A stretch of DNA of 57,044 nt, taken from assembly GCA_039180385.1 (NCBI GenBank), contig JBCDDJ010000001.1:1-57044 (forward strand). The letters run 5' to 3'. Each line of letters opens with the position of its first letter. Within the stretch, counting starts at the first letter, position 1. Shown piece after piece: positions 1,948 through 56,988 of the stretch. Source of the stretch: Cyanobacteria bacterium P01_G01_bin.38 (GTDB lineage Bacteria > Cyanobacteriota > Cyanobacteriia > Phormidesmidales > Phormidesmidaceae). The notes beneath the pieces are model-generated. The model was not told the DNA's origin. It ran no database searches and was given only the letters and a program-made list of their open reading frames with translations. The position numbers were made by a program, and so were the translations under genes.

Positions 1948-1962
1948 GGCAAAGGTCAGGAA

Positions 1963-2721: not shown

Positions 2722-3106
2722 GTGTGCGGAGCGATCGCTGAGACTGCCGCTATGGGTTCGCCGACCATGACTCGTGATAGAGATGCAGAACAGCATTGGG
2801 AAAAGGAGCCGGGGAGCGCAGGGAATACCAGCTTTTGCGGTGCTTTACGAGCGATCGCGCTTGCCATTCTATAGGGCTGGTGTTTCCCCAGTAAGCATCG
2901 CGCTTTGATCAACGCTGCACGCCCAACTCATCAGGTAGTCAAGTGTTGCGTTGCATCTAAGCAATTCAAGCAATTCAACCCGCAAATAGAACAGCCATCT
3001 CTCACACTGTAATAAAAGACGATCTAATCATTTGGCTCAATCCGTTTTCCGCAAAATGCACTGTTTATTGACTCGCTAATTTCAGCCCCTCTTTAGGTCT
3101 TACCAT

Positions 3107-3592
3107 ATGAGCATTATCCTACAGTCGATTGCCCGTGCTGATGCAGAGACTCGCTATCTGACTCCCGGAGAAATAGATCAGATCAAAGATTTTCTAATGA
3201 GTGGCGATCGCCGCTTGCAATTAGTTAAAGCATTGACAGAAAGTCGTGACTTTATTATCAAAAAAGCGGCCAATAAATTGTTTCAGGGGCGGCCTGATTT
3301 AGTGTCACCTGGCGGTAATGCCTTTGGCAAAGAAATGACCGCCACCTGCCTGCGGGATATGGATTATTATCTGCGTTTGGTCACGTATAGTGTGGCAACT
3401 GGCAATGCCACGCCCATTCAAGAAATTGGAGTGATCGGAGCACGTCAAATGTATCAATCATTAGGCACACCGCTTAATGCTATAGCCGAGAGTGTAGGTA
3501 AAATGAAGGCGATCGCTATCTCCCTCGTGTCGGCGAAAGATGCTGATGAAGTCGGCACTTACTTTGACTATTTGATTAATGCCCTGCAATAA
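3107..3592 (+). CDS. allophycocyanin alpha-subunit family phycobiliprotein (orphan; no apcB partner nearby)
   Basis: 161 aa, colinear from memory with ApcA: MSI..., [34 protein letters not shown] (bilin-binding Cys present), [18 protein letters not shown]. Confidence 0.85.
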
Positions 3593-41008: not shown

Positions 41009-41590
41009 TTAACCAGTAATCAACGTGGTGAGGATATCGGCGGCGGTGACCGCAATGATGATGATCAGCGGCGTCCGCGCAATCGTTTGCCAGTCCTCAT
41101 CCTGGCGGGCGGAGTTGATCACCCGCACCAGCGAAATGCCCACATACAGCAGGAATAAGCCCCTCAACACGTTAAAGACCAGCGGGATGGCATCACCCGT
41201 GTCAGTGCCAAAGTTGCTTTCCATCCAGCTCTCGGCTTCACCAAAGAACTGAGCCTGGGCGGGATGGGCCATCAAAGTCATGAGTAGAAACAGCCCCAGG
41301 CCAGTCACCAGAAGGGCTCTGGCGATAAAGCGCTGACGCTGAATGAACCGTTGAGCTGGGGGATATCGGCGGGTAAAGGCCCTGCGCCAGGTGAAGCTGG
41401 TGCCTAAAACGACGGTGAATATCGGCAGCCACACCAAGCTATGCAGCAGCGCATCCACCCAGAAAAAACTGACAGCGATAGCCGTCAAAACTGGAATCAA
41501 GGCTTGAAGTTTACTATCAGTAACCCAATCGGTTGATTGGGTCGGCTTGAATAATTTACTAGACCGTCTTGGCTGAGTCTGACTGATCAT
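41009..41590 (-). CDS. putative T4SS pilin precursor (VirB2/TrbC-like) with a long leader
   Basis: First gene of the operon. An internal signal-like segment LLVTGLGLFLLMTLMAHPAQA-QFF is followed by about 95 aa with two hydrophobic helices, the usual VirB2 layout. Confidence 0.35.
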   Translation of the reverse strand: MISQTQPRRSSKLFKPTQSTDWVTDSKLQALIPVLTAIAVSFFWVDALLHSLVWLPIFTVVLGTSFTWRRAFTRRYPPAQRFIQRQRFIARALLVTGLGLFLLMTLMAHPAQAQFFGEAESWMESNFGTDTGDAIPLVFNVLRGLFLLYVGISLVRVINSARQDEDWQTIARTPLIIIIAVTAADILTTLITG

Positions 41591-42213: not shown

Positions 42214-42978
42214 ATGAAGACATTAAGCTGCCTGTCGCTATCGGGGGGACAGGGTAAGACATCGAGTGCGTTGCTGTTGGGGCGATTGCTGGCTCATCAG
42301 CGCCATCGGGTACTGATGGTGGATGCGGACCCCCAGGCGAATCTGACGTTTTATCTGGGGCATGAGGTGCGATCAGATGCGCCCACGCTGCTGGAGGTCT
42401 TGAAGCGCCAGGTAGAAACGGCAGACGGGATTTATCCGCTGGCTTACGAGCATCTGTATTTGATCCCGGCGGATGAGGGGTTGCACAAGGCGCAGGAGTA
42501 TTTGGCCACCAGTGGGATGGGAGCGCTGGCGTTGCGGTATTGCCTGGAGACGGTGGCAGCGTTGTTTGACTATTGCCTGATCGACTCGCCGCCCCAGCGC
42601 ACGCAGATTTGTCTGTCGGTGGTGGGGGCGTCTGACTTGGTGTTGATCCCGGCGGAGGCTTCGACGAAGGGGGTGAATTCGCTATTACTCAGTCTGGATC
42701 TGCTGGAGGAGCTGAGGGCGACTCGGGCGTTTAGGGGACAGGTGTTGGGGGTGTTGCCGTTTCGAGATAAGTGGTTTGGGCGATCTCAAGCGACGGATAG
42801 TCGGGAGGCGATCTCAGCCATGCGACAGGTGGTGGGTGACATCCCGGTTTTGCCCTCGATTGTGGAAAGTGAGCGATATAAGCAGGCGATCCGGCTGGGG
42901 CGGCTGCTCTCGGAGATGGGTCATGCGGACCTGGAATATCCACTGCATCGGATTATTGAGCTATTGGGGCAGGCATAG
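42214..42978 (+). CDS. parA: ParA/Soj family partition ATPase
   Basis: Deviant Walker A LSLSGGQGKTSSAL. MVDADPQANLT and IDSPP motifs. 254 aa. Confidence 0.85.
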   Translation: MKTLSCLSLSGGQGKTSSALLLGRLLAHQRHRVLMVDADPQANLTFYLGHEVRSDAPTLLEVLKRQVETADGIYPLAYEHLYLIPADEGLHKAQEYLATSGMGALALRYCLETVAALFDYCLIDSPPQRTQICLSVVGASDLVLIPAEASTKGVNSLLLSLDLLEELRATRAFRGQVLGVLPFRDKWFGRSQATDSREAISAMRQVVGDIPVLPSIVESERYKQAIRLGRLLSEMGHADLEYPLHRIIELLGQA

Positions 42979-42979
42979 G

Positions 42980-43423
42980 ATGAATGAGGATGCTCTGGAA
43001 CGGTTAATGCAGCGGAAGCGGCCCAGTGTGCCCCCTCGAACGGATGCGCTGGTACCGACCTCGCCGGTTGTGAAGTCTGGTCAAGGGAATGACACCACTG
43101 ATGAGCCCCCAGGATATACTGACGCTGGTGTGTCTACAGGTGTTGACGTCAATATGTCTACACAGCATGATGAGACGGATTTGCCGCAACTGGTACGGAC
43201 GACGACGCGGTTGGAAGCGCATATTGATAAGGCGCTACGCCATCTCTGTATGGATGAGAAGGTGACGAAGGAGGTGTGGTTTGAGGCGGCTTATCTGTAT
43301 CTGGTGGAGCATCCGAAGGCGATGAAAGCGGTGAATGGGTTGGCGAAGCAGCGATATCAGCGGCGGAAACGGGCGGCGGATTTGAGGAAGTTGGAGACGA
43401 TGCAGAAGCGGTTAAAGGGCTAG
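42980..43423 (+). CDS. putative partition adaptor / centromere-binding protein (147 aa)
   Basis: ATG at 42980, 1 nt after the parA stop. Disordered N-terminus and a basic helical C-terminus (KQRYQRRKRAADLRKLETMQKRLKG). Assignment by position only. Confidence 0.35.
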   Translation: MNEDALERLMQRKRPSVPPRTDALVPTSPVVKSGQGNDTTDEPPGYTDAGVSTGVDVNMSTQHDETDLPQLVRTTTRLEAHIDKALRHLCMDEKVTKEVWFEAAYLYLVEHPKAMKAVNGLAKQRYQRRKRAADLRKLETMQKRLKG

Positions 43424-43571: not shown

Positions 43572-46500
43572 TTAACCAGTTTCTTGTAATCCAGCCGCAA
43601 TCGCATCGATAGAAAATAGTGTGCCTCGCAACAATTCACCACGACTGTAGCGTGATTCTCTTCTACCCAAAGACACAGCAACATCGCGATGTTCTCGAAA
43701 GCGTTTAACTAGCTCAACTTGTAAAAAGCCAAGTGGAGCAATAGTTTCTTCTCGAAATTGTAAAGATCGCTGCAAGTCAGGATTGTCATCTAACAATTGT
43801 TCGTGTGATGTGATCAACAAAATTAGATCGCGAGTCAAATTATACTCGCTGACTATTTGCTCAAAAATTGCCTCGAACCGTTTTTGATCCTCGGGTTGGG
43901 ATAGTTGTTGTAAGTAATGATGAGCGATTCGCAAATTTACTTTGGCTAGAGCCATCTCACACTTCGAAACAACCATATGAAAGAATGGCCATTTGTGATA
44001 AAAGGAGCGTAACAGCTTTATATGCTCATCTGGTGCTTTCTCTAAAAAGCCTTGAAGCGCGGTGCCAACTCCGTACCAAGATTGAAGAGAAAACCGAGAT
44101 TGATTCCAACTGAACATCCATGGTATAGTCCCTAGTTCAGCAGTTTTCCCACTTCTGCTCTTCCCAAACTTAGGCCGAGAGCTAATTTGGAGTTGGGAAA
44201 TCTCATCGAAGGGAGTAACTCTATAGAAAAAATCAACAAAGCCTGGCTGTTCATAAACTAGATCGCGATAGGCAGAACTAGCACGCGCAGATAATTCTGT
44301 CATAATTTCATTCCAAGGTTGAATCTCATCATATCCGCTTGGCAGTAAACTTAATTGTAAAACTGCAGATGCGACACCTTCTAAGTTAGATAAGGCCACC
44401 TCTGGTAGAAGATATTTAGCAGCTAAATCTTCTCCTTGCTCTGTAATTTTTATTCGACCATCTATGACTTTCCCTGGCTGAGCAAGAATCGTTTCATGAA
44501 TAAGGCCACCACCACGCCCTATTGAGCCACCCTTTTCATAGAGAATTCTTAGAAATATGCCATGTTTTTCAGCCATTTTCTGTAGAGAATACTGTGCTTT
44601 ATGGATTTCCCAGTTACTACTGAGAAATCCTATATCTTTATTAGTTTCAGAATAGCTAACTAGCAATTCCTGAATAAATATTGGCTCTTCTTGATATGGG
44701 TCTTTGCCCTCTTTTTCCAAAAAGGTTTGATATAAAGGTAAATCAAACAATGTAGACATAACTTTTGTAGCTAGATTCAGATCTTCTAGTGTTTCAAATG
44801 AGGGAACAACCTGAATTGCACTATGCTCTGTAGCAGGGTTATAAAGACTGGCTTCTTTAGCAAGAAGAAGAGCTTCTAAGACATGACTGGCCCGATTGCA
44901 TTGAGAAATAATATATTTTTGACAAATTCCGAGACCAAATTCTTTTTGAAGAGCGGCAATCATGCGAAAGGTTTGAAGGCGTTCATTTGTTTTTTTAGAT
45001 AGAGGTAACATTAAAGCTCCCAAAGGGCGAAGAGACTTTAGTTCCGTTACCAACCACAACACTCGCTCCTCTTCAGTGAGCTCGTTATACCGACGAGGTG
45101 AAAGCTTTAGATATCCAATAATTTCATCTACGGCATTAGTATGAACAGAACAGTTCTGCTTTATGTCCAAATGTGCGAAACTAAACCCAAAAACTTCTAC
45201 TTGGCAGATCAAATCATTGAGCTGCTGACAAACCAAACCGGTGCCTTCAAGGCTCTGCTGAATCAAATATAACTCTGCTAAAAACTCTTCTGCAGAGCTG
45301 TAGAACTGGGGAGAAGTTTCTACTAAATTCTCTGCCTGAGTGTAAATGATCTCATGGAGTTTTTGGCTACGTTCATAGGTGTTGATCAAACGATGTTCGA
45401 TAAAGACCAATTTAAGCCGGTAGGGTTCCTGGCGATAGCGAATAGAATATTGCTCGTACACATCGGGTAGAACTAAACGATCCTCCTCTAGTGATTCGAG
45501 TATCGCTGAGAAAACCTCGCTCCAATGCAATGATGGGCTGAGCAAGCCGGTAAGCTTTCGAACAGAGTCGATATACTTTCGTAATACTAAGTTGCGCTGG
45601 TGACAAGCTGCTTTCCACGTGATTTCAGGTGAAACAGACGGATTACCATCTTGATCTGCTCCAACCCAGGAGCCAAGCCTGCAAAAGTTACGTTTGGGTA
45701 GACGCATATTGCGGTAATTATCTTTAAGTGCTTGATGAAAGCGTTGATAGAGCGAAGGAATTACATCAAACAGTACATCCTGAAAATAATGAAGTGTAAA
45801 ATCTACTTCATCTAATACATGGGGTTTAAACTGATGCAGCTCATCTGTACGCCACCAAAGCGTTAGTTCGTTTATGAAATGTTCTCGCAGATTTTTGACT
45901 TCTGTTGAGGACAAGGAACTTTTATTCATCAATTTCTCTTCGGCTCTATCGATTTTCCGCAAAATCTCGACGGTTTTCCGCTGTTTATCTCGAATTGTGT
46001 ACCGAAAAATCTCTGTTGGATGGGATGTAAATACTAGTTGTACATCTAATCTATCCAAAACTCGCTGCACTTTTTGAGGTGGTACATTCAAACCACGTAA
46101 TTTTGGAAACAAGACTTGAAATTGGGCACTTATTTCATTTCCTTCATTTATAGTACCTGACCTGAATGTATTTTCTTTCAAAGATGTTTTATATTGTTGT
46201 CGAATTCTTTTCTCGAAGCATTGCTCTACAATATTGACTATATGAAAGTAAAGAATCAGAGCCCTTATGAGTCGAATCATCTCCTCCAGACTGAGTTCCT
46301 CAACTACTTTAAGCACATCCAAAGTGCTCTCTTCCAATTCTTTGTTTTTTTGAGAGTATATTGATCGCAAACGTACCATCGAATTCAGTATCTCACTGCC
46401 ACATTCAAGGGCTACGACAGAGTTAACACTATCTTCAATGAACTTGAGAGGATGATTCAGGAAGAAAGGTTCGGTCGACAGACTTTGCAACGCTTCCTCA

Positions 46501-49370
46501 GTTATGGCCTCCCCTACTACTTGTTCGCTTTGCTTTGGAACTTGACGCAACAATACTTCCAATGCTTGCTTGCGCTTTTGCTCGGATTTTTTACGTTCTT
46601 GCTCAAATTGCATCTGCTCTTGCAGCAGTTGGCTCTCTCGTTGTTTTACTTCTAATAACAATTCCTCAGCTTGTTTCTTAGCATTTTTAACTTCTTGTTC
46701 AGTCAGTTGTTGTTCAAGTCTTGCCTCCGTTAACTTTTGACGAAGATCTAGATTTTCTTGATGTCGAATAAGAGGAACCAAATAATCATGAACTAACTGA
46801 TATCGATCAGCGGAAGCTTCTAGTAAGCGCAGCACTATTCCCGAACCAACTAAAATCATTAGAATCAAACGCAATGTCTCCAGATTAAAAATCACACCAA
46901 GCGCTTCTAAATCCTGTGCGAGCTCAGTATGAGTTTTAATAGGGCGAGTATTGTTTTCATCAGTTAATAAATATAAAACTAACCTTGCTACCTGCTCATT
47001 CACATCGCCGCAATCTTTAACAACTTCTTCTAGGAATCTGTTGACAATCTGGTCTTTAGAACCTTTGTCAAGGTATGTTTGTAGAGTACTGATCTTCTCG
47101 ACTTGAAGCTGGGTCCCTAAAACCTGCAACTCAATTGGGAGAACTTGACCATATTCTCCTGCTAAGTCTTTCACAACCCTATTGACCAATTTAGGTTCCA
47201 TACTAAGCTGGGTATCTTCAGTTAATGCTTGAATAACTGATTTAGCATCTTCAGTAGTAAGATTTTCGAGAAAAAATAGAATATCTTTGTGTAAAATGTT
47301 GTTTATTTTCTTTAAATTAACGAGACGGTCATTACATTCTAAAATGCGGTGCAAATAGTCTTCTCGTATCGCCAAAAAAACCTTTACATAATCTATCTCT
47401 AGACAGGCATCTAGAAACTCATAAAACTGCTTTCTTTGATCAGGATCTTGGCAGGCAAAGAAAAACTCTTCAAATTGATCAAGCACCAAAATCGTCACTA
47501 AATTTCGATTCAGAGTATTTTCTTGGAGTTGTCTCAAAATATCTAATGTCGAAATTAGAGGACGATCAGGAACTGATACATTTGGCACCTTTTGGATAGA
47601 TTTCACTAAATGTTGCCCTAAATCCTCGATCCAGTTAGTATAAATTTGAAGAGTAATGATAGTCAGATTACGTGTATCAAGTGAGGAAGAAGACAAAACT
47701 GGGACTAATCCTGCCTGTATTATTGAGCTTTTCCCAACCCCCGAAGGACCGTAAAGGATAGTGAGCCGACAGTCAGTCCTATCCATAATGCGTCTAATTA
47801 AATCTTGAACTTTTTGTTGTCGTCCAGAAGCGATTATTTCTTTGGCAATGCGTTCATCCTTTTTTGCAACAGCTGAGATAGGATCAAAAACAGTTTTTGA
47901 GGGGCGCAATCGGCCAGCACCAATAAATGCTAAGAAACCATATTGTTGCTTAATAGCTTGTGAAAATTCTTTGATATTAAAAGCTTTGAGATATTCTTTC
48001 TGAGCAAAGTATACCTGGCGTAATACATCTAGAATTCGGATATAAAGAAGTGGATCATATTGAGGGTTGGAACTTGTTTTAGCCTTATTTAAGTTATCAA
48101 TTGCCTCGGAGGTTTGATTGAGATGATACTGTGCTTCTGCTAGTAATAATAAATAAAAACTCTCATAGTGCTGTCTTTCCCACTCCAAGTCAACATTGGG
48201 TTTTGAAGGCATTGAATTTGTTGCTAACGCAAGTTCAGCATAATGTTTTGCTGTTTTCCAATTCGAACTTCGTATTGCCACCTCAGCCATTAAGCCATAA
48301 CCATAAGCAAGTCGAACAGGTTCATGATGTTTCTGATGTAAATCAATAGCTGTTTGAGCAATCTCCTGTAATTCGTCAACTGTCTGTTCATTCAATTGAA
48401 CTAATACTTCCCCCCAAGCATTGACGAACTTTGCTGCTAACTCATCGTATTGAGCCTGTTGTAGTTCTCTTACACATTGATGGAAATAGTTTTTTGCCTT
48501 GCGACATGCTATCTGGTAATCTGCTCGATGCGGAGAAACATACTGACGCCACCACAAGCCTAGATAAAATGCAACGCAACTTAAACGTTGGATAGCAGCA
48601 GTAGATTTCTCATCCTTTACGCTTTCATTCCAGATCTTTAAGCTATTTTCATAAAACTGACGAGCGTTAGCTCTTTCGCCAAAAATATCTCTCACTTGCC
48701 CTTGAAGGAAAAATAAACTCGCCTCTAGATCACGACTCAAAGGAGCATTACTGCTTAGGAAATCTGAAGCTGCAAAATCCAGTTCCTTTGCATGACGAAA
48801 ATCAAGAGGTTGATTGAGAGTGACTGTTTTTAGAAATCTACTATCGCCTAAGCTCAAAATCGCGTTGAACACTTTATCTATTGAGCGCTTTAGGCAAGCA
48901 TCTAATTCATCTATCGAGATACTAAATTCTATGGGAATCGCAGCCCAGCTCTTGAAATCAGGAGCTATTTTGGACATTTTCTTTAAAAGAGAATCATTTA
49001 CCCATAAAATCAACGGAAAATCAAGCTCTCGGCGAAATTCCTCGCGAATTTGGTTTGTCGAAATTAGTAATTTGTCGATATCAGTTACCGACTCTAAACC
49101 AAATATCATTAAGGCTTGAGGATGCTGTTCACTCAACTCCTTCTGAATTTCTGTATAAAGTGATCCTGACGATTCCTGCAAATGCAGTTCATAGATTTGA
49201 ATAGAACATAGTTCCTTCAATTTTTCCACCATTTGCTCTCTCAGGTGAGCATAATTACATTTCACTAAATTTAGAGAGAATTCTCCCCGAGAAAGCTCAA
49301 TTGCACGTGCTAAAGTCTTGAGCGATTCCTCATTTGCCAACACTGTTGGATTTTGACTAGAGTTACTCAT
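43572..49370 (-). CDS. 1932-aa fusion: N-terminal conserved module + TPR-like repeats + STAND-type P-loop NTPase + coiled coil + complete PEP-carboxylase-like domain
   Basis: Walker A LYGPSGVGKSS (aa 539-549, nt 47724-47750). Walker B ILVLDQFEEFF (aa 627-637). Coiled coil at aa about 880-945. PEPC signatures: VFTSHPTE (aa 1113-1120, nt 46011-46028), SWVGADQDGNP, LDIKQNCS, VPSFETLEDL, SYSETNKDIG, EKGGSIGRGGG (nt 44505-44531), KITEQGE, IPWMFSWNQSR, C-terminal AAGLQETG. Uninterrupted ORF in DNA of roughly 30-38% GC. Confidence 0.85.
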   Translation of the reverse strand: MSNSSQNPTVLANEESLKTLARAIELSRGEFSLNLVKCNYAHLREQMVEKLKELCSIQIYELHLQESSGSLYTEIQKELSEQHPQALMIFGLESVTDIDKLLISTNQIREEFRRELDFPLILWVNDSLLKKMSKIAPDFKSWAAIPIEFSISIDELDACLKRSIDKVFNAILSLGDSRFLKTVTLNQPLDFRHAKELDFAASDFLSSNAPLSRDLEASLFFLQGQVRDIFGERANARQFYENSLKIWNESVKDEKSTAAIQRLSCVAFYLGLWWRQYVSPHRADYQIACRKAKNYFHQCVRELQQAQYDELAAKFVNAWGEVLVQLNEQTVDELQEIAQTAIDLHQKHHEPVRLAYGYGLMAEVAIRSSNWKTAKHYAELALATNSMPSKPNVDLEWERQHYESFYLLLLAEAQYHLNQTSEAIDNLNKAKTSSNPQYDPLLYIRILDVLRQVYFAQKEYLKAFNIKEFSQAIKQQYGFLAFIGAGRLRPSKTVFDPISAVAKKDERIAKEIIASGRQQKVQDLIRRIMDRTDCRLTILYGPSGVGKSSIIQAGLVPVLSSSSLDTRNLTIITLQIYTNWIEDLGQHLVKSIQKVPNVSVPDRPLISTLDILRQLQENTLNRNLVTILVLDQFEEFFFACQDPDQRKQFYEFLDACLEIDYVKVFLAIREDYLHRILECNDRLVNLKKINNILHKDILFFLENLTTEDAKSVIQALTEDTQLSMEPKLVNRVVKDLAGEYGQVLPIELQVLGTQLQVEKISTLQTYLDKGSKDQIVNRFLEEVVKDCGDVNEQVARLVLYLLTDENNTRPIKTHTELAQDLEALGVIFNLETLRLILMILVGSGIVLRLLEASADRYQLVHDYLVPLIRHQENLDLRQKLTEARLEQQLTEQEVKNAKKQAEELLLEVKQRESQLLQEQMQFEQERKKSEQKRKQALEVLLRQVPKQSEQVVGEAITEEALQSLSTEPFFLNHPLKFIEDSVNSVVALECGSEILNSMVRLRSIYSQKNKELEESTLDVLKVVEELSLEEMIRLIRALILYFHIVNIVEQCFEKRIRQQYKTSLKENTFRSGTINEGNEISAQFQVLFPKLRGLNVPPQKVQRVLDRLDVQLVFTSHPTEIFRYTIRDKQRKTVEILRKIDRAEEKLMNKSSLSSTEVKNLREHFINELTLWWRTDELHQFKPHVLDEVDFTLHYFQDVLFDVIPSLYQRFHQALKDNYRNMRLPKRNFCRLGSWVGADQDGNPSVSPEITWKAACHQRNLVLRKYIDSVRKLTGLLSPSLHWSEVFSAILESLEEDRLVLPDVYEQYSIRYRQEPYRLKLVFIEHRLINTYERSQKLHEIIYTQAENLVETSPQFYSSAEEFLAELYLIQQSLEGTGLVCQQLNDLICQVEVFGFSFAHLDIKQNCSVHTNAVDEIIGYLKLSPRRYNELTEEERVLWLVTELKSLRPLGALMLPLSKKTNERLQTFRMIAALQKEFGLGICQKYIISQCNRASHVLEALLLAKEASLYNPATEHSAIQVVPSFETLEDLNLATKVMSTLFDLPLYQTFLEKEGKDPYQEEPIFIQELLVSYSETNKDIGFLSSNWEIHKAQYSLQKMAEKHGIFLRILYEKGGSIGRGGGLIHETILAQPGKVIDGRIKITEQGEDLAAKYLLPEVALSNLEGVASAVLQLSLLPSGYDEIQPWNEIMTELSARASSAYRDLVYEQPGFVDFFYRVTPFDEISQLQISSRPKFGKSRSGKTAELGTIPWMFSWNQSRFSLQSWYGVGTALQGFLEKAPDEHIKLLRSFYHKWPFFHMVVSKCEMALAKVNLRIAHHYLQQLSQPEDQKRFEAIFEQIVSEYNLTRDLILLITSHEQLLDDNPDLQRSLQFREETIAPLGFLQVELVKRFREHRDVAVSLGRRESRYSRGELLRGTLFSIDAIAAGLQETG

Positions 49371-50667
49371 CTTTAAACCCTTCGCTTTCTACTAAGGCAG
49401 GATTTATATCAAACCATCTATCATCTCTTTTGTCTCTGTATTCAAACACAAAAAGGCTGCGGAGAAGTGCTTGATACTCGGGCTCCTCACTTATCATCTT
49501 TTCTTGAGAAATGTGACGAAGCAATTGCCATTGCTCATCACTGACAGATAGTTCCAAATCTCCTCGATAACGTTTAATCACAGCTTCTAGACAATTACGA
49601 GAAATAGGAGGGTCTATTTGCTGTAAACAACTGTAAAGCAATACCAATAAATTTCGAACATGACCTCCACTAATACAGCAAAGACGCTTCAATGTCTCTA
49701 AACTATCAAATACCTCAGTTGCTTGCTCTATTCGTTGAAGCGAATTTAGGCCAGGGAATGCCCTTGCCAATACCATCTGCTGTAACAGTGCAATTCCTTC
49801 CTTATTTTCATCACCCTTTCTGGATTTGACTGGCACCATTGGGAGAAGTAAAGGTTGAATCCCGAAACGATTGGTCAACTGTCCAAAGTTATTCGAGAAA
49901 ATCAGACTAAGTGGAACCGTATAAACCAAATGACATTTCAGTTGTTGTAGTTGATCTCCTCGATCTATAAACAGATATTCTGTTTGGGAACGACCTGAAG
50001 CCGTAGGCCTATTATCAATTCGGTCAAGATTGTCAATAATGACAACCAGCCCTTTCTTACCTTGTTGTTTTAATCTCTTTTGAGTAGGCTCTAACAACTC
50101 TCGATTCATTGCATCTAAAAGATTGTTTGTTCGCGGCTCCAGATATTGCCTGAGACTCTTACGCAACTCAGGACTATCCTTAGTCTTAGCCGTGATTTTA
50201 CCAATAATCACTGACAACTCTGCTTCAAACCCTAAATCCAGTGAAGGGATTTTTTTAGCAAGTTCGGCAAATAGGTCAGCAAAACCTCCCAAATAGGGAT
50301 GCAGTTGAGCTTCTTCTAAGCTTTTTGTCACATGTAAAGCAATAGCTAAAAGTATATCACTGATATCTACATCACCAATATCTAGAGCTTTATTCGACTC
50401 AAAATAAACGACATAGAAGTCTTTCTGTTCCAAATCAGTCTTTAGTCGTAGTAGCTCTGTCGATTTTCCACTTCCGATATGCCCAGTAAAAAGCTGGCAG
50501 TTTGGTTCGTCCTCTGACAAAGTAATAGTTCTTTCCAGTTGATGGATGATATTACTATCTCGAACTGGAGAGAAATCAATGTAGTACTGTCGATCTTCTG
50601 GTCTTCCAACCATCAATGTTTTGCTAGGATTGCAAGCTTTGAAAAATTTTGAAACATTTAGAGACAT
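49363..50667 (-). CDS. P-loop NTPase (434 aa) translationally coupled to the STAND-PEPC gene
   Basis: Walker A TGHIGSGKST (aa 61-70), Walker B LVVIIDNLD (aa about 206-214), with an insert of about 140 aa between them (KAP-like spacing but no TM helices). The stop overlaps the downstream start in ATGAGTAA (8-nt overlap). Confidence 0.75.
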   Translation of the reverse strand: MSLNVSKFFKACNPSKTLMVGRPEDRQYYIDFSPVRDSNIIHQLERTITLSEDEPNCQLFTGHIGSGKSTELLRLKTDLEQKDFYVVYFESNKALDIGDVDISDILLAIALHVTKSLEEAQLHPYLGGFADLFAELAKKIPSLDLGFEAELSVIIGKITAKTKDSPELRKSLRQYLEPRTNNLLDAMNRELLEPTQKRLKQQGKKGLVVIIDNLDRIDNRPTASGRSQTEYLFIDRGDQLQQLKCHLVYTVPLSLIFSNNFGQLTNRFGIQPLLLPMVPVKSRKGDENKEGIALLQQMVLARAFPGLNSLQRIEQATEVFDSLETLKRLCCISGGHVRNLLVLLYSCLQQIDPPISRNCLEAVIKRYRGDLELSVSDEQWQLLRHISQEKMISEEPEYQALLRSLFVFEYRDKRDDRWFDINPALVESEGFKDE

Positions 50668-51081: not shown

Positions 51082-53937
51082 TTATCCACTGGTGGAATTG
51101 AGCCTTAAATCAGATAGCACTACTTCATGAGATACCCACCAACTTGGTCCTCTGATTGTTGCCATCTCACCAACAATTTCTTCGATTTTCACCCGATTTA
51201 ATCCTTTTAACTGCCTCAACCCTTTCCCCACATATTGACAAATATCCCCTACCTTCAACCGCCGCTCACCCATCCCCACGTCTACCACCTCAGTCTCTGG
51301 ATTCTCCCCCTCAGTAGACACTCTATCTATCTGTAGACCTTCAGTAGACGCCCCATCTACTGTCCGTATCCTATCCATATTAGCCCCTTCAGCCATTTCG
51401 GTAGACAAGTAGACACCCTGCCTCATTTCCACCGCAACCACCCCGTCTACCACCCCATCCTGAGCCTTCTCAACCCCGTCTACCCGTCTACCATTTCCTT
51501 GAAACCCAAATTTATCAAGCTTTTCAGCAGTAGACACCCCATCTACCCCTCCCTCCTCATCGTCTACCCCGTCTACCGTCGCCCGCCACTGCAACCGATT
51601 CCCCATCCCCCTGGTCTCCCCATACCCCATTGCCTCCAACTCCCGAAAATGAGACCGAATCACATCCGAACTCGCCTTCCGTAAACTCCGCTCATAATTC
51701 CGCACATCCTTCGCCCGTAGCCAACCCCGTACCCGCGACAGCCGAATCAACTTTGTGTAGACCGGCTCCAACGCCCCGTCTACCGTATCCCCCTCCGCAT
51801 ACAATAATTTCACCTGACCAATAAACCACCGCGCCAGCTTGATTGCCGCCGTCATCGTCTGGGCCGACACCGCCTCCGCCGGTAGACAGCCCGCCACTGA
51901 CGCATTCAGACAATGCAAGATCAACGCCAGCCGTCCCGTGTACCCCTGCATCTTTGAATAAACTGCCTGCAAACCCTGATGCGTCTCCGTCACCCGCCGC
52001 TGATCCAACTGGTCATACCAATCTGCAAACAGCGTCTTCGCCTCGGGGGTGAGCCCATAACACCGGGGCGTTAACCCCACCAACTGTCGGTAGACACCAT
52101 ACAGTCGCTCCGAAATGTCATACCGCACCGTATTGCGCGGAAACGGCGCAGGCTTTAGCGGCAGTAGACACCACAGAAACCGTGCCCACTGACCACTGGC
52201 ATCGGAGAAATCGCCCATCATCTCCCGCAAGATATCCGGCTGGATAGTCCCCGTAATGCTGAGGCTGGTGCGCGGAATGCTAATGCGAACACCGCTGGCC
52301 CGATCCACCTTCAAGCCCGACCCATCAAAGGCCGTCAGCAGCGACTCCTTATCGTTACCCCGCCCATTTCGATACTGGTTCTGCCCCTTAAAGAGCCCTG
52401 CCAGCTCATCCGGCGTCACTAAAATCCCCCGCGTCGGCTGCTGCGACTGAATTCTTGCCAGCGCCTCTCGGGTCGCATCCGAGGTGTGATACTCCCGTGG
52501 GGTAGGTTTCCGGGGGCGATCGCATCTATCCTCCTTCTTGGTCAGCTCCCATTCCCGCAGCTCCACCTCATATTCTGAGACCGCCCAGTCATAGTCCTGA
52601 TCCGCCTCTTCCTGCAATCGCGATAAGGGCTTCAGAATCTGCCGCTGGATGGGACTTTTCTTACTGCCCGAGGGAGCCACCAACCCTGTAAACAGAATCG
52701 GCGGCACATAGAAGCCCATCCCCGCATCAATTTCCAGCTCCGTCCCCATCTGGAGCAGCGAGGCCGCCACCGGCAGCAGGGTCACCAGCATGGCCGCTGG
52801 GGTGGCCCCAATCCAGTTGGCAATGCGAGTCAGCGGTTCCGCCAGGTCGGGGTGGAGATAGTCGCTGAGTTGCAACTCGTAATCGCCAATCTTCAGGAGT
52901 TGACTGATTTCAGCGATGCGATCATCTCTTTCTTCTGTCTGCTCCAGCTCCGCCTGGATCGGCTTAATCAAACTCCAGAGATCCCTGGCCGAGAGCCCCA
53001 CCTCCCGATGCCACTGCACCACCTGCCCCGACAGCTCCAGTTCAGAGGGGGCCTGGGCCAGATAGTCTCGAATCTGGGCCTGGAGCGCTGGCACATTCAG
53101 GGATTGGCCTGCTCCTGGCGGGTCAGGGGCGAGTTCTCGCCGTGCCCCCACCGCTGCCCGAATTTGCTCCGCCGTTGCCCCATCCGCAATCCAATCGGCA
53201 ATGTCCAGCCCACCATGCTTGGGTAAATTCTGCCAGCGCCAGCTATCCGGGTAGACATAGCACCACTGTGCCTGGGGAAAGTCCTCATAGACCTCCGCCA
53301 TGTGGGCCAGCCCCACCTGATCCTGATCGGGGCACAGCACCAGGCGAGCATCTTTCAGATCCGCGTTATAGTTCCCATAGCTGCGATATTTTTTGGACCC
53401 TCCCAGTGTGGTCGTCGCCGGAATCCCCAGCTGCCAGAGCGCATCGGCGCAGCCTTCCCCTTCCACCATCCAGATCGGTTGTCCCGCCGCGATCGCACCC
53501 TGCACCTCCCGATAGCGATAGATCGGCACCTGCTGCTTAACCTCTGGGGTGAGCCCTTTGACCCACCGTTGCCCGTCCCAGCGCTGTTGCACAAAATACT
53601 TGGAGCCATTGCCCTGATCTACTCGGGTCAACTTCACCAGCGGTTGACCGTCCCGGCTGGGGTAAAAATAATCCTGTTTGCGGCGGGGCCGTACCGGCTT
53701 GGCGGGCTCGGCAGTCGCTGCGAAGTATTGTCCCCACAGGCCATCAGCGGTTACGCCCCGGTAGACATAGCCCGCTACCTGCGCGTCCTGATCAATGTGG
53801 GTGTGGCAGAAGACCACCTCCTTATTCCAGCGGCAGTCTTGATCTTTGGTGCGATCGCAAATCGGGCAGGGGTGCGATCGGCCTGAATATTGGTACTGTG
53901 CCATGGTCAGCTCCTGATGGGTTAGGAGCTGGGCCAT
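51082..53937 (-). CDS. Zn-finger / Toprim primase fused to a helicase-like (DUF3987/P4-alpha-like) domain; replication protein of the element
   Basis: CPICDRTKDQDCRW...FCHTH zinc ribbon. Toprim IWMVEGEGCADAL and LCPDQDQVG. P-loop-like GLVAPSGSKKSP. The C-terminal tail has VDG repeats. Confidence 0.6.
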   Translation of the reverse strand: MAQLLTHQELTMAQYQYSGRSHPCPICDRTKDQDCRWNKEVVFCHTHIDQDAQVAGYVYRGVTADGLWGQYFAATAEPAKPVRPRRKQDYFYPSRDGQPLVKLTRVDQGNGSKYFVQQRWDGQRWVKGLTPEVKQQVPIYRYREVQGAIAAGQPIWMVEGEGCADALWQLGIPATTTLGGSKKYRSYGNYNADLKDARLVLCPDQDQVGLAHMAEVYEDFPQAQWCYVYPDSWRWQNLPKHGGLDIADWIADGATAEQIRAAVGARRELAPDPPGAGQSLNVPALQAQIRDYLAQAPSELELSGQVVQWHREVGLSARDLWSLIKPIQAELEQTEERDDRIAEISQLLKIGDYELQLSDYLHPDLAEPLTRIANWIGATPAAMLVTLLPVAASLLQMGTELEIDAGMGFYVPPILFTGLVAPSGSKKSPIQRQILKPLSRLQEEADQDYDWAVSEYEVELREWELTKKEDRCDRPRKPTPREYHTSDATREALARIQSQQPTRGILVTPDELAGLFKGQNQYRNGRGNDKESLLTAFDGSGLKVDRASGVRISIPRTSLSITGTIQPDILREMMGDFSDASGQWARFLWCLLPLKPAPFPRNTVRYDISERLYGVYRQLVGLTPRCYGLTPEAKTLFADWYDQLDQRRVTETHQGLQAVYSKMQGYTGRLALILHCLNASVAGCLPAEAVSAQTMTAAIKLARWFIGQVKLLYAEGDTVDGALEPVYTKLIRLSRVRGWLRAKDVRNYERSLRKASSDVIRSHFRELEAMGYGETRGMGNRLQWRATVDGVDDEEGGVDGVSTAEKLDKFGFQGNGRRVDGVEKAQDGVVDGVVAVEMRQGVYLSTEMAEGANMDRIRTVDGASTEGLQIDRVSTEGENPETEVVDVGMGERRLKVGDICQYVGKGLRQLKGLNRVKIEEIVGEMATIRGPSWWVSHEVVLSDLRLNSTSG
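51280..51576. repeat. cluster of 14 GTCTAC/GTAGAC (2 as ATCTAC) hexamers, iteron-like
   Basis: Copies start at 51280, 51314, 51333, 51344, 51355, 51401, 51409, 51445, 51478, 51486, 51530, 51541, 51562 and 51571. Eight are in one orientation (consensus CCCC[G/A]TCTACC) and six in the other. Two more lie at 51757 and 51778. Confidence 0.7.
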
Positions 53938-53944
53938 CCATCTG

Positions 53945-54045
53945 AACCTGCTACCGGGCTCAATTTATGTTGATGAGAGTCCTATCTTTGTGGACATTTT
54001 GAACCAGTTTGCTATAGTTAAAGAACATAAATTGAGTAGCAGGTT
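53945..54045. repeat. long imperfect inverted repeat upstream of the primase-helicase gene
   Basis: AACCTGCTACCGGGCTCAATTTATGTT (53945-53971) versus AACATAAATTGAGTAGCAGGTT (54024-54045). The arms are complementary over 22 nt apart from a 5-nt bulge. The spacer is 52 nt. Confidence 0.7.
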
Positions 54046-54124
54046 AATGGCCTGGTCGGTTCTGCTAAAACCAACCAGGCAAATAGATTAACCCAGTCCA
54101 GAAAATCAAAAAAATTAAGATCAG

Positions 54125-54157
54125 ACACCCTACCTGGTAAGCAGTTGGGTGTTTTTT
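54125..54157. terminator. hairpin plus T-run (terminator-like) between the xis-like and primase genes
   Basis: ACACCC (54125-54130) pairs with GGGTGT (54147-54152) and is followed by TTTTTT on the plus strand. It could also act on the minus strand after the xis-like gene (a T-run lies 8 nt further on). Confidence 0.35.
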
Positions 54158-54223
54158 ATTGGGAATCTAATCCCATGACATATTCAGGAAACTCATCAAC
54201 AACGTGATGAAAAAGATGAAACC

Positions 54224-54568
54224 TTAATGTCGTTTACTTCGACTCTGTCTTTGTCCACGAGCGGCGGTCTGGAATTGCTTTTTGGACGTGCTGCTTTGAT
54301 TGCTTAATAAACTGGCCTGATAAACCGCAATCGCTCGCTGATGGGCCACCGGGTCGTGACGGTTATGCACCCAGTCTTTCAGTAACTCCAGGTTGTAGCG
54401 AATCACCCGGCTATTGATGCGAACCCAATGTAGCCCCTCAATCAACAGACCCTGGGAACGGTAACGCTTGAGCGTGGTGTCGCTAAGCTTCAGACATTGG
54501 GTAGCTTCTTGCTTGCTGACGAACTGGGTGATAGGGATAGCTGTTGGCTGGCTAATGGATTGGGCCAT
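54224..54568 (-). CDS. excisionase-like / MerR-AlpA-type HTH DNA-binding protein
   Basis: MAQSISQ...VSKQEATQCLKLSDTTLKRYRSQGLLIEGLHWVRINSRVIRYNLELLKDWV is a typical Xis-type HTH. GGAG lies 9 nt upstream of the ATG at 54568. The longer ORF-track start at 54718 would overlap the Ner-like gene. Confidence 0.6.
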   Translation of the reverse strand: MAQSISQPTAIPITQFVSKQEATQCLKLSDTTLKRYRSQGLLIEGLHWVRINSRVIRYNLELLKDWVHNRHDPVAHQRAIAVYQASLLSNQSSTSKKQFQTAARGQRQSRSKRH

Positions 54569-54776
54569 GATTAACAACTCCTCGCTTATAGCGTTGAGGC
54601 CAGATTTCATGGGGTGAGAGCCCCACTTTACTTGCAATAAATCGTTCGATCCGTCGAGAGCGCTGTCGTGAGAGTGCATGGGAAACCGCCGAGGGGCCAA
54701 TTTCCAACTCCCTGGCAATGCTTGCTAGAGTCCAGCCTTGCTTTCGCAAAGCTGCTTTAATGTCTTCTACATGCAT
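54552..54776 (-). CDS. Ner/Nlp-like HTH regulator (Cro-type role)
   Basis: MHVEDIKAALRKQGWTLASIARELEIGPSAVSHAL...SPHEIWPQRY matches the Mu Ner / Nlp family pattern from memory. Confidence 0.65.
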   Translation of the reverse strand: MHVEDIKAALRKQGWTLASIARELEIGPSAVSHALSRQRSRRIERFIASKVGLSPHEIWPQRYKRGVVNHGPIH

Positions 54777-54877
54777 AAGATTTGGGTAGCTACATCAACA
54801 TACCGATGAAGTTAGCAATTAAAAAATTGCATGTCAAGCGTTATAATTTGCAATCGTTGACAACACAATAACGCCTT
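54777..54877. promoter_or_regulatory. divergent overlapping promoters with a palindromic operator (CI-like / Ner-like switch region)
   Basis: Minus strand: TTGACA (54837-54832), 17-nt spacer, TAACTT (54814-54809). Plus strand: TTAAAA (54819-54824), 17-nt spacer, TATAAT (54842-54847). The 16-bp palindrome GCAATTAAAAAATTGC (54815-54830) lies in both spacers. An extra GCAAT half-site lies at 54850-54854. Confidence 0.5.
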
Positions 54878-55513
54878 ATGCCTAATCCACCTTCTGAAAA
54901 GATGCAGCCCAATATTGGTGAATCTGATGACTTTCCCAGCCGATTGAAAAAGGCAGTTGGGAACAAGAGTATTCGCGGCTTCGCCCGTGAGTGCGGTTTT
55001 TCCGATACGGTACTGCGTCAGTATCTCAATGGACAGAGTGAGCCGACTCGACCTGTGTTGCTCGCGATCGCTCGTGCCGCTGACGTCAGTCTGGAGTGGT
55101 TGGCCGCCGGGCGGACTGCTTCCGAAAATTCAACGGATATCCTAGCTAAGAAATACGTTTATAAGGAAACCTTAGCCTTTGATGCGGATTGGCTACAGGC
55201 CCAGTTTCCAAATTCGTTCGAAAATCTTCTCCTGACCCAGGTTAAAGACGAGAGTATGGAACCAACGCTGCATGTTGGTGACTTGATTTTGGTAGACACC
55301 CATGTTCGAGACCTGGATGCGGTTGACCACGGGATTTACCTGCTGAAGTTAGGAGATCGCCTACTGATCAAACGTTTGCAATATTGGGTGGACAATACGC
55401 TTCAGGTACTCAGTGACAATCCTGCCTATGAAACTTTTTCAATCGAGTTGTCTGACAGACCCAGTCCTCTCAGTATTATGGGTAAAATCGTTTGGGTTGG
55501 CCACAAATATTAG
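54878..55513 (+). CDS. CI/LexA-like repressor (XRE HTH + S24 peptidase domain)
   Basis: HTH IRGFARECGFSDTVLRQYLNGQSEPT. S24 catalytic context DESMEPTL (Ser) and LLIKRL (Lys). Confidence 0.8.
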   Translation: MPNPPSEKMQPNIGESDDFPSRLKKAVGNKSIRGFARECGFSDTVLRQYLNGQSEPTRPVLLAIARAADVSLEWLAAGRTASENSTDILAKKYVYKETLAFDADWLQAQFPNSFENLLLTQVKDESMEPTLHVGDLILVDTHVRDLDAVDHGIYLLKLGDRLLIKRLQYWVDNTLQVLSDNPAYETFSIELSDRPSPLSIMGKIVWVGHKY

Positions 55514-55557
55514 AATGGCTTCATATACCAGTTTCACGAGATAACAAAGTCAGTGAC

Positions 55558-56727
55558 TCAAAACTCTGGCACATCAAGTTTGCGCTTCTTAGCTGCGTAA
55601 TACTTATAAATCACCTCAGGAGAGTTACCTACCAATCGAGCCACATCCTTTGCATCCATTCCAGCCTCTAACGCCAGTGTGATAAACGTATGGCGTGTTT
55701 GGTAAAGCTTTCGATATTCGAGATTGAGACCTTTGAGAACTTTTGCCCAGGTGCGATTTCTAAAATTGTTGAGATCGATAGCCTTACCCTCTGGAGAAGG
55801 AAAGACAAAGGTTTCTGAGGTAACTTTGTCAGGCTTGATAGAACACAGTAACCTTCTCAGTGGCTTATTGCATGGAAATATTCGTTGTTCCTGCGTTTTC
55901 AAACCATCTCGGATTCGCTTGCCAGTTTCTGTTCTGATCAATGCCTGAGAAAAAGTAATTTCCTTACATTTTTTTGAAATATACTTCCAGGTAAGCGCAG
56001 ATGCTTCTGAGGGCCGACAACCAGTTGAGAACAAAAACTTAATGAGCGCTGTATAATAACTATGCTTAAAGGCAGATGATCTAGGGCTAAACTGATCGGT
56101 TTCGATAGCTTGAATGATTGCATCCCGCTCTGAGGCTGAAAAGGGATTGATATCGTTCAAGCCATCTGTTGAAACTGATTTCGGCACCTTGATCTTAGCA
56201 GCCATACCGAGGAACGGATTGTGCTCAATGAATCCAGAATCAATTGCCCAGTCACAACAGGCTGAGATGCGAGTAATCAAACGTTTACTGGTATCTAGAG
56301 AAAGATGAGCCAAAATATAATCTCGCATTTCACTGGCGCGGCTTAAATCGTGAGTTGGGAAGCGAGCAATATGATTGGTGTAGGGGCCATAGGTATAGCT
56401 CATCGTGTTTGGAGAACATTGAGGTCGCTTAAATTCTATGAACTTGGGCCACAGGTCAGCCAGATTTAGCTCGGCTGATTGGGTGTTTGCATCATATTCA
56501 GGCTTATACCTGGCAAAAGTAGGGTCGAACCTGTCGAAGGCAATGTCCGATTCAATCAGTTTGGCTTTTGCTTCAGCAGCCCGACGATTAATCGTCGTAT
56601 CAGGAAGCCCCGTACTCAAATAGTGGCGCTTACCAATATAGGTAAAGACCAACTGAAGTCGATCATTAGAGGACTTAATCCGGACAGTACCTTTAGACGC
56701 TTTGTGCTTTTTCGGGGCCGAGGTCAT
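55558..56727 (-). CDS. int: tyrosine recombinase / phage-type integrase
   Basis: 389 aa. C-terminal catalytic region ...GCRPSEASAL... LYQTRHTFITLALEAGMDAKDVARLVGNSPEVIYKYY (R..H..R..Y pattern). Adjacent to the 3' end of a tRNA gene. Confidence 0.85.
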   Translation of the reverse strand: MTSAPKKHKASKGTVRIKSSNDRLQLVFTYIGKRHYLSTGLPDTTINRRAAEAKAKLIESDIAFDRFDPTFARYKPEYDANTQSAELNLADLWPKFIEFKRPQCSPNTMSYTYGPYTNHIARFPTHDLSRASEMRDYILAHLSLDTSKRLITRISACCDWAIDSGFIEHNPFLGMAAKIKVPKSVSTDGLNDINPFSASERDAIIQAIETDQFSPRSSAFKHSYYTALIKFLFSTGCRPSEASALTWKYISKKCKEITFSQALIRTETGKRIRDGLKTQEQRIFPCNKPLRRLLCSIKPDKVTSETFVFPSPEGKAIDLNNFRNRTWAKVLKGLNLEYRKLYQTRHTFITLALEAGMDAKDVARLVGNSPEVIYKYYAAKKRKLDVPEF

Positions 56728-56874
56728 GATGGTGCCTCCTTGCTCAGTACAAAATACCCGCCTGGATTTACCCCAATCCTACCCCAATAAATGAACTAAA
56801 TTGGCCAAAAATGACCCAAAAAATGCTCTTGAGTACAGACACGAGCACTTATCTTGGCGGTCATCAAGATCGTG

Positions 56875-56908
56875 AAGGCCCCTGAAATCAATTGATTTCA
56901 GGGGCCTT
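56875..56908. repeat. perfect 34-bp palindrome between the integrase region and the tRNA 3' end
   Basis: AAGGCCCCTGAAATCAA|TTGATTTCAGGGGCCTT. No convincing U-tract in either direction. Possible tRNA terminator or recombination-arm site. Confidence 0.6.
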
Positions 56909-56917
56909 TGTTGGGAA

Positions 56918-56988
56918 GCGGGTGAACGGACTCGAACCGTCGACATTCAGCTTGGGAAGCTGACGTTCTACCACTGAACTACACCCGC
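56918..56988 (-). tRNA. tRNA-Gly (anticodon CCC), CCA not encoded
   Basis: Sense strand GCGGGTG-TA-GTTC-AGTGGTA-GAAC-G-TCAGC-TTCCCAA-GCTGA-ATGTC-GACGG-TTCGAGT-CCGTT-CACCCGC folds into a canonical cloverleaf with a 7-bp acceptor, 5-bp anticodon stem, U33 and A37. Confidence 0.9.

Follow-up and report, generated by a model that had tools for sequence, protein, structure and literature searches.

A phosphoenolpyruvate carboxylase-like domain with an altered active site at the C-terminus of a cyanobacterial nSTAND1 protein

In a 57,044-nt stretch of contig JBCDDJ010000001.1 from a marine cyanobacterium, Cyanobacteria bacterium P01_G01_bin.38 (the window, whose positions serve as coordinates throughout), we found a single open reading frame, P0001, in which an nSTAND1 (NLR-like) NTPase is followed by a full-length domain related to phosphoenolpyruvate carboxylase (PEPC). 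A module of this kind, derived from an enzyme and placed at the C-terminus, is unprecedented for a STAND NTPase. As judged from its sequence, the domain has most likely lost ordinary carboxylase activity, since several residues needed for canonical catalysis are replaced. The interpretation that we favour, with a probability of about 0.45, is that a catalytically compromised PEPC paralogue serves as the ligand- or protein-recognition module of a STAND switch.

Results

A complete PEPC-like domain fused to an nSTAND1 NTPase

The open reading frame and the parts that define the fusion are as follows.

43572..49370, minus strand: open reading frame P0001, 1932 aa, comprising an α/β domain, tetratricopeptide repeats (TPR), an nSTAND1 NTPase, a coiled coil and the PEPC-like domain
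43575..46457, minus strand: PEPC-like domain, full length, residues 972-1932 (PF00311)
46458..46697, minus strand: charged helical (coiled-coil-like) linker, residues 892-971, placed by its sequence and by the end of homology, with the STAND/PEPC junction within it
46698..47825, minus strand: nSTAND1 NTPase, residues 516-891 (PF20703, E 4.2e-38)

The C-terminal domain matches PF00311 (PEPcase) with 979.2 bits against a cutoff of 22.4, over profile positions 2-919 of 919, and retains the PEPC chain whole from about residue 35 of the canonical protein. It also passes, narrowly, the cutoff of the NCBIfam ppc equivalog NF000584 (858.6 against 815). The PEPC-like frame runs for 2.9 kb, or 961 codons, at 40% GC and contains no stops; an earlier sequence-only reading of this DNA had placed the domain at 43575..46490, close to the span found with Pfam. 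The NTPase has a PF20703 match of 132.4 bits against a Pfam cutoff of 27.1, and its Walker A (GPSGVGKSS) and Walker B (LVLDQFEEFFF) motifs are both intact, corresponding to the nearly invariant family columns G-SGVGKSS and DQFEEFFF.

Substitutions concentrate in the catalytic motifs

Residue equivalences were taken from a MAFFT alignment of 52 sequences, namely the domain, the genome's own ppc, E. coli K-12 ppc and 49 cyanobacterial-type PEPCs. It agreed with alignments made in HMMER to PEPC structures from Flaveria and maize, and the codons were verified. Substitutions are named in E. coli (Ec) numbering.

46020..46022, minus strand: H1117, the catalytic base histidine (Ec H138, maize H177), kept (alignment; PMC7569800)
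45159..45161, minus strand: K1404, equivalent to Ec R396 (DIRQES read as DIKQNC), a position that is Arg in 51/51 canonical sequences and in 148/149 wider representatives, the other having a gap
44799..44801, minus strand: S1524, equivalent to Ec L504 of the hydrophobic pocket (PLFE read as PSFE); the metal ligand E1526 is kept (alignment; PMC7569800)
44637..44663, minus strand: residues 1570-1578, LVSYSETNK against M(L/I)GYSDSxK, with M538L, G540S, D543E (a metal ligand) and S544T; K546 kept (alignments)
44514..44543, minus strand: residues 1610-1619, LYEKGGSIGR against FHGRGGxxGR, with F578L, H579Y, G580E (E1612) and R581K; R587 kept (alignments)
44127..44177, minus strand: lid-loop region, residues 1732-1748, with R703G (G1736), R713G (G1747) and A714T; R699 kept (alignments)
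43575..43586, minus strand: C-terminal peptide, LQETG against MRNTG, with R880Q and N881E; terminal G kept (alignments)

The alignments bear out the residue equivalences proposed in the sequence-only reading: H1117, E1526, K1578, R1619, R1732 and R1759 are indeed the retained H138, E506, K546, R587, R699 and R725, and K1404, E1575, Y1611, K1613, Q1240 and E1930 indeed replace R396, D543, H579, R581, R253 and N881. The changes exceed what chance would give, all of these positions being conserved in 51/51 canonical sequences. That list of changes was correct but incomplete, as it missed R713G, R703G, L504S and G580E, which are non-conservative, and M538L, G540S, S544T, F578L, A714T, D775N and R880Q. 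The motif named there as PLFE, whose glutamate (E506) is kept, in fact reads PSFE.

In the published accounts, maize H177 serves as catalytic base, the metal ligands are E566 and D603, W248, L504 and M538 form the hydrophobic pocket, aspartate is bound by R647, K835, R894 and N968, and the tetramer contact is made by E493 and R498 (PMC7569800); by our alignment, W248, L504 and M538 in that paper are E. coli numbers. Loop I (GRGGxxGRGG) carries the active-site arginine, a second loop covers the active site and the C-terminal peptide is catalytic (PMC3894211), the lid loop being maize Asn755-Arg773 (PMC8637149), a span that includes maize R763, the equivalent of Ec R703. Set against this framework, the metal-ligand pair E506/D543 (maize E566/D603) is only half preserved, since E1526 is kept and D543, which is Asp in 51/51 and 148/149 sequences (the remaining one having a gap), has become Glu (E1575). 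The active-site arginines R396, R581, R587, R699 and R713 are reduced to R587 and R699, with R396K, R581K and R713G. Among these five, the catalytic status of R587 follows PMC3894211 and that of R396 and R713 the title of Gao & Woo 1996, while the roles of R581, R699 and also H579 are taken as background on PEPC. Two of the replaced arginines reportedly matter for catalysis, as Gao & Woo 1996, by its title, calls Flaveria R450 and R767 essential for catalytic activity. These correspond to maize R456 and R773 and to K1404 and G1747 here, as counted on the maize alignment with the 606/600 maize/Flaveria offset from PMC4085955. Because K1404 and G1747 stand in place of arginines that are said to be essential, ordinary PEP (phosphoenolpyruvate) carboxylation by the domain seems unlikely.

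Of the residues R587, K773, R832 and N881 that form the aspartate/malate site, three of the four are kept, and N881E is found in natural PEPCs. This pattern does not by itself establish the proposed loss of metabolic feedback control. The tetramer-contact residues E433 and R438 (E. coli numbering) are also kept.

The substitutions are rare among PEPCs

Among the 243 near-invariant columns of the 51 canonical sequences, 51 are changed in the domain, and so are 27 of the 142 strictly invariant ones, where ordinary cyanobacterial PEPCs show 0-3 such changes. The literature-defined functional residues are hit more often than the rest (6/13 changed, against 45/230 other near-invariant columns; one-sided Fisher p=0.033). 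We then compared the domain with a wider set of 200 other PEPCs, made up of the 51 canonical sequences and 149 representatives that a full HMMER scan drew from 1.84 billion cluster representatives. At 22 core positions the domain has 13 deviations; among the 200 others the largest count is 6, in one sequence (P0235), followed by 2 in three sequences and 1 in twelve, and the remaining 184 do not deviate at all. A conservation of at least 95% in the 200 PEPCs defines 70 columns, and the domain changes 14 of them, all 14 within catalytic motifs (TAHPT, DIRQES, PLFE, MxGYSDS, FHGRGG and the lid region). None of the 200 has R396K, D543E, G580E, R713G or R703G. Within the 149 representatives, R396, D543, G580 and R713 are not replaced at all and R703 is replaced once, by Ala; Lys takes the place of R581 in one of them and Tyr that of H579 in two. 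In view of these counts, the substitutions are not common features of ordinary cyanobacterial PEPCs. This rarity extends to most of the changes listed in the sequence-only reading, with the exception of R253Q (6/149) and N881E (4/149), which, like R880Q (22/149), represent natural variation outside cyanobacteria.

The PEPC-family representative P0235 (1011 aa) deviates at 6/22 core positions (E506Q, G540D, S544A, K546R, F578L and A714T) and may be a second, independent degenerate PEPC.

The fold is kept and the domain remains under constraint

The AlphaFold2 (AF2) model of the domain has the PEPC fold, including the eight barrel strands (pLDDT 85.3, pTM 0.86). Foldseek aligned it with maize PEPC 5vyj_C at E 1.3e-51 and TM 0.86/0.89, and superposition on E. 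coli PEPC 1jqn gave TM 0.82/0.90, in keeping with the expectation that the catalytic scaffold is retained. From the highest to the lowest conservation class, the domain agrees with the consensus at 81, 75, 56, 41 and 19%, and the genome's own ppc at 99, 96, 76, 60 and 30%. Constraint on the domain is thus relaxed yet still patterned as in PEPC. The replacements are also unusually conservative: at the 14 changed columns the mean BLOSUM62 score is +0.29, against -1.34 under a composition null and -0.78 under a one-step codon null (P<=0.004), and at an 80% threshold (n=31) it is +0.19, against -1.43 and -0.76. Graded conservation together with conservative replacement argues that the domain is under selection, that it is not a decaying relic and that its pocket still matters. 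To that extent, the earlier view that this is not simply a dead enzyme stands.

The fused domain is a cyanobacterial PEPC paralogue

The same genome carries a canonical ppc on another contig (G000:C70:6280-9303), a 1045-aa open reading frame that scores 1200 bits and has all canonical motifs. Comparison with this copy, which had been proposed as a check, showed that it is normal and that the fused domain is 56.5% identical to it, while the canonical copy is 74% identical to its own nearest relative. A FastTree tree with E. coli as root places the fused domain within a cyanobacterial clade of 50 sequences with support 0.93; this node excludes E. coli and P0050, and deeper placement of the fused domain is unsupported (0.42, 0.62). 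Its terminal branch is about 5 times as long as that of the genome's own ppc (1.05 against 0.22).

GC content at third codon positions (GC3) is 0.31 in the N-terminal part, 0.32 in the NTPase, 0.33 in the PEPC part and 0.31 in the gene upstream, compared with 0.65 in both the genome's own ppc and a neighbouring gene for a DUF3987 protein. Because the PEPC part is fully ameliorated to the rest of the cassette, the fusion is old enough to have reached a uniform composition, and is neither recent nor a chimera of the host ppc.

In the Logan assembly of sequencing run X1, made independently with a second assembler, one contig spans 43000-51000 with 0 differences at depth 17, joining both parts of the protein. 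Run X1 is probably the source of the assembly itself, so the Logan contig does not count as independent biological support. The junction occurs in this one run, with no RNA run listed for it, and runs X2 and X3 share next to no words with it. A word-indexed search of 5.8 billion clustered proteins with the PEPC part, restricted to lengths 1062-3381, returned 49 plain PEPCs and no second fusion, and below the query the HMMER scan of 1.84 billion representatives returned only canonical PEPCs; the word-indexed searches, with the PEPC part as with the N-terminal part, scored only the roughly 8000 candidates sharing most words. In the two long forms among these, P0200 and P0271, Pfam finds only PF00311. 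These PEPCs (1321 and 1180 aa) are extended at the N-terminus by about 400 and 230 residues without a Pfam match, and the extensions could be real or artefacts of gene calling.

The family places WD40 propellers where P0001 has PEPC

The remaining parts of P0001 and its partner gene are as follows.

47901..48920, minus strand: TPR-like helical repeats, residues ~151-490, resembling the peptide-binding repeats of LGN/Rap/NprR (Foldseek, VIA, Atlas)
48921..49349, minus strand: N-terminal α/β domain, residues ~8-150, with AF2 strands at 32-37, 59-63, 86-90 and 119-124
49363..50667, minus strand: 434-aa P-loop NTPase (KAP/AAA_16-like; Pfam KAP_NTPase, 21.1 bits against a cutoff of 20)

Residues 1 to about 900 belong to a large cyanobacterial family, with 2551 matches at E<=1e-3 among the 8000 candidates scored. 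The best 119 non-self matches of the 2551 are about 43-50% identical to P0001, and homology to the WD40 relatives ends at a median residue of 900 and at most at about 965, with one outlier at 1022. Of these best 119, 118 have tails of WD40-like repeats and one (P0084) has CHASE2; PF00311 occurs in none of them, and P0001 itself lacks the C-terminal repeat module. The CHASE2 protein (1313 aa) presents a second module swap at the same junction.

The AF2 model of the N-terminal 515 residues (pLDDT 81) consists of two parts, the α/β domain and a TPR solenoid. The former (residues 8-150) matched no family in Pfam, even with the threshold relaxed to E<=5, and fold searches were dominated by the TPR part (151-490); residues 13-168 are nevertheless conserved downstream of the 434-aa partner gene in other genomes. 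The TPR part matches LGN/Pins in Foldseek (E 1.8e-6), 4wng (Z 20.9) and NprR (Z 19.8) in VIA, and TPR clusters of the Atlas at 0.93.

The stop of the upstream 434-aa gene overlaps the start of P0001 by 8 nt, and the two are translationally coupled. Homologues of the 434-aa protein are present in 110/401 cyanobacterial genomes sampled, and in 28/29 of its best loci a homologue of the P0001 N-terminal domain lies downstream on the same strand. Because of this pairing, the two genes are taken to form a conserved two-gene system, whose variable C-terminal module is normally a propeller.

The genome contains a second resident pair at contig C52:7712-~14000 on the plus strand (L035, L036, L038), in which a homologue of the 434-aa protein, 57% identical, precedes an open nSTAND1 frame of 1659 aa with 37-45% identity.

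The cassette lies in a conjugative element

18798-41590 (minus strand), 42214-42978 (plus strand) and 51082-56988: conjugative-element genes (Pfam/PADLOC matches)

One flank of the cassette contains genes for a DUF3987 protein, an HTH-S24 repressor and a tyrosine integrase, and tRNA-Gly(ccc). The other contains ParA and a long operon encoding TraG/TrwB (the coupling protein), TrbI, an M23 peptidase, a VirB4-like ATPase (931 aa), a 2148-aa Strawberry-notch/ResIII helicase with DUF6908, and Prim-Pol. By this gene content, the window is largely an integrative conjugative element inserted at tRNA-Gly, with the cassette (43.6-50.7 kb) as cargo. The far end of the island was not found, as no repeat of the tRNA-Gly region of at least 13 nt occurs elsewhere in the window. 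GC content is 0.38-0.41 over 44-50 kb (about 0.39 for the cassette) and 0.50-0.59 on both sides; this sharp island, in GC as in GC3, suggests that the element received the cassette at 43572-50667 from a donor of lower GC content.

Weak PADLOC matches of neighbouring open reading frames to 'mad8' and 'mad2' are better explained as conjugation ATPases and helicases. Three open reading frames of 193, 215 and 164 aa (41009-41590, minus; 42776-43423, plus; 54224-54718, minus) have no Pfam family; the 215-aa frame, which overlaps the end of parA, is perhaps no real gene.

Discussion

Our data are consistent with a model in which a two-gene nSTAND1 system on an integrative conjugative element would have captured a cyanobacterial PEPC paralogue as its C-terminal module. 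The paralogue has kept the fold of PEPC, the residues of the dimer-dimer salt bridge and some of the ligand pockets. The domain would act as the recognition or input module in the position otherwise held by WD40 or CHASE2. Its ligand might be a metabolite, for instance PEP or a dicarboxylate, or it might work like an integrated decoy and offer a host-PEPC-like bait to some protein that an invading element encodes; on both views, the STAND core would be released by binding to oligomerise in an NTP-dependent way. We rank recognition first because four lines of evidence converge on it: the slot, the kept fold with part of the pockets, the lost catalytic residues and the intact ppc elsewhere in the genome. 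The slot is assigned to a sensor from the composition of the relatives' tails, and it agrees with the way in which C-terminal repeat, FGE or WD40 modules of STANDs are treated as sensors (PMC10907252, PMC13581612), with the TPR, WD40 and FGE-like sensors listed for STANDs (PMC13581612) and with the treatment of STANDs of this clade as conflict systems with C-terminal recognition modules (PMC8195603, PMC10907252). By the same token, the make-up of the family speaks against the proposal that PEPC is an output controlled by the fused NTPase, since the relatives hold recognition modules at that place. The residue changes and their rarity, the kept fold, the relaxed and graded constraint, the exchange of the module, the separate ppc and the mobile-element setting are direct observations, from which loss of carboxylase activity, a sensor role, the kind of ligand and any part in defence are inferred.

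Several observations weigh against this interpretation. The family has no recognised effector domain, and the assignment of the C-terminal slot to a sensor proceeds by analogy. The N-terminal TPR, which is modelled as a peptide-binding type, could itself be the sensor, and the C-terminal module would then be left as an output or scaffold. H138, E506, K546, R587, R699 and R725 are kept and most changes are conservative (R to K twice, D to E), a pattern that would also fit an enzyme that is altered and still active. In every database searched the fusion is a singleton, with one sequence, one contig and one run. In PADLOC-DB 2.0, 0 families match P0001, and the 434-aa gene has only a weak match (PDC-S20, E 1.2e-4). 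Among the literature matches listed, judged by title and abstract, none links cyanophages or mobile elements to the targeting of PEPC. In the same way, literature searches found nothing that combines PEPC with STAND NTPases, nothing relevant by title or abstract for PEPC and pseudoenzymes, and nothing relevant under the E. coli PEPC residue names.

The sequence-only reading preferred a re-tuned enzyme that is still active, here gated by oligomerisation of the NTPase; it might carboxylate PEP with altered kinetics, hydrolyse PEP or use PEP analogues, and act as an effector that, for instance, depletes PEP. Since the active form of PEPC is a tetramer, a metabolic effector switched by oligomerisation is conceivable. 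PEPC is the sole enzyme-like domain of P0001, its tetramer-interface residues and much of its catalytic equipment (the histidine, the glutamate metal ligand, K546, R587, R699 and R725) are in place, replacements at conserved columns are significantly conservative, and the NF000584 cutoff is still passed. We nevertheless consider this unlikely. R713G and R703G remove arginines of the lid region, L504S alters the hydrophobic pocket, and R396K, D543E, G580E, R713G and R703G are absent from the 200 other PEPCs; two of the lost arginines are those called essential in the title of Gao & Woo 1996. The domain also sits in the position of WD40 and CHASE2 in the 119 relatives, and in characterised antiviral STANDs the effectors are N-terminal (PMC10907252). 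Thus the description of the changes as charge-conserving is apt for R to K and D to E but does not cover R703G, R713G, L504S and G580E, and the preference for re-tuning over death is right in that the domain is not decaying and is replaced conservatively, but has to contend with the loss of both lid arginines to Gly and with L504S and G580E.

A more doubtful possibility is that the domain is an oligomerisation or partnering module, which would pre-assemble the STAND or co-assemble with host PEPC in order to regulate or monitor it. E433 and R438, which form the tetramer according to PMC7569800, are kept, as is the nearly complete PEPC chain, and PEPC paralogues offer a precedent for hetero-oligomers (PMC3010082) in the Class-2 PEPC complexes, in which bacterial-type subunits join plant-type ones. 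The support from the interface, however, comes down to two residues, and partnering would leave the conservative replacements in the active site unexplained. A recent, accidental and functionless fusion on its way to decay, with the changes reflecting relaxed selection, is improbable: its singleton status among 5.8 billion clustered proteins and 1.84 billion representatives, the long terminal branch and the enrichment of changes at functional residues would suit it, but the 961-codon frame is open at 40% GC, a GC3 of 0.33 against 0.65 in the genome's own ppc indicates that the fusion is not recent, 81% of the invariant columns are retained under graded constraint, the replacements are conservative and the fold prediction is confident.

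With cyanobacterial PEPCs (PF00311, NF000584) it shares the full-length profile, the fold, the clade and the residues H138, E506, K546, R587, R699, R725, K773 and R832, but the P0001 copy is fused behind a STAND NTPase, is changed at 13/22 core positions, has a longer branch and differs in GC3. With nSTAND1-WD40 proteins (PF20703; for instance P0055 and P0057, which the sources assign to Nostoc) it shares about 50% identity over about 93% of 970 residues and the upstream 434-aa partner gene, and differs in carrying a PEPC-like domain where these proteins, like 118 of the 119 relatives, have WD40 propellers. Avs and Apaf-1-like STANDs have the same tripartite logic of an NTPase with a recognition module and occur in mobile or defence-type contexts (PMC10907252, PMC13581612), whereas P0001 has neither a recognised N-terminal effector nor a PADLOC match and has a KAP-like NTPase as partner.

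Plant NLRs with integrated decoys, such as RRS1-WRKY, likewise carry a C-terminal homologue of a host protein encoded elsewhere (PMC11702601), and in our case such a host protein is the ppc on C70. An integrated-decoy mode has been proposed for the bacterial NLR-like bNACHT11, whose sensor is not a recognisable copy of a host enzyme (PMC11702601). By analogy, one could imagine a bacterial integrated decoy in which a disarmed copy of host PEPC baits proteins with which cyanophages or rival elements hijack the anaplerotic carbon fixation of the host. We regard this specific form of recognition as a long shot; we know of no pathogen effector that targets PEPC in this setting, and the likeness to plant NLRs is architectural only.

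The value of the finding is limited by the single copy in the data searched, and it carries a caution for annotation: because the domain passes the NCBI equivalog cutoff, pipelines that use NF000584 could name it phosphoenolpyruvate carboxylase. STAND and NLR proteins embody the logic that bacteria, plants and animals share in innate immunity, and at issue is how they gain new recognition specificities. In P0001, a whole enzyme of central metabolism has taken the place of the WD40 propeller of a widespread cyanobacterial STAND family, with its active site selectively rewritten and its fold under constraint, which makes it a candidate for a metabolite-gated NLR-like switch or for a prokaryotic integrated decoy. 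If the latter were true, the plant NLR-ID principle would here have its first prokaryotic example made from a recognisable enzyme of central metabolism.

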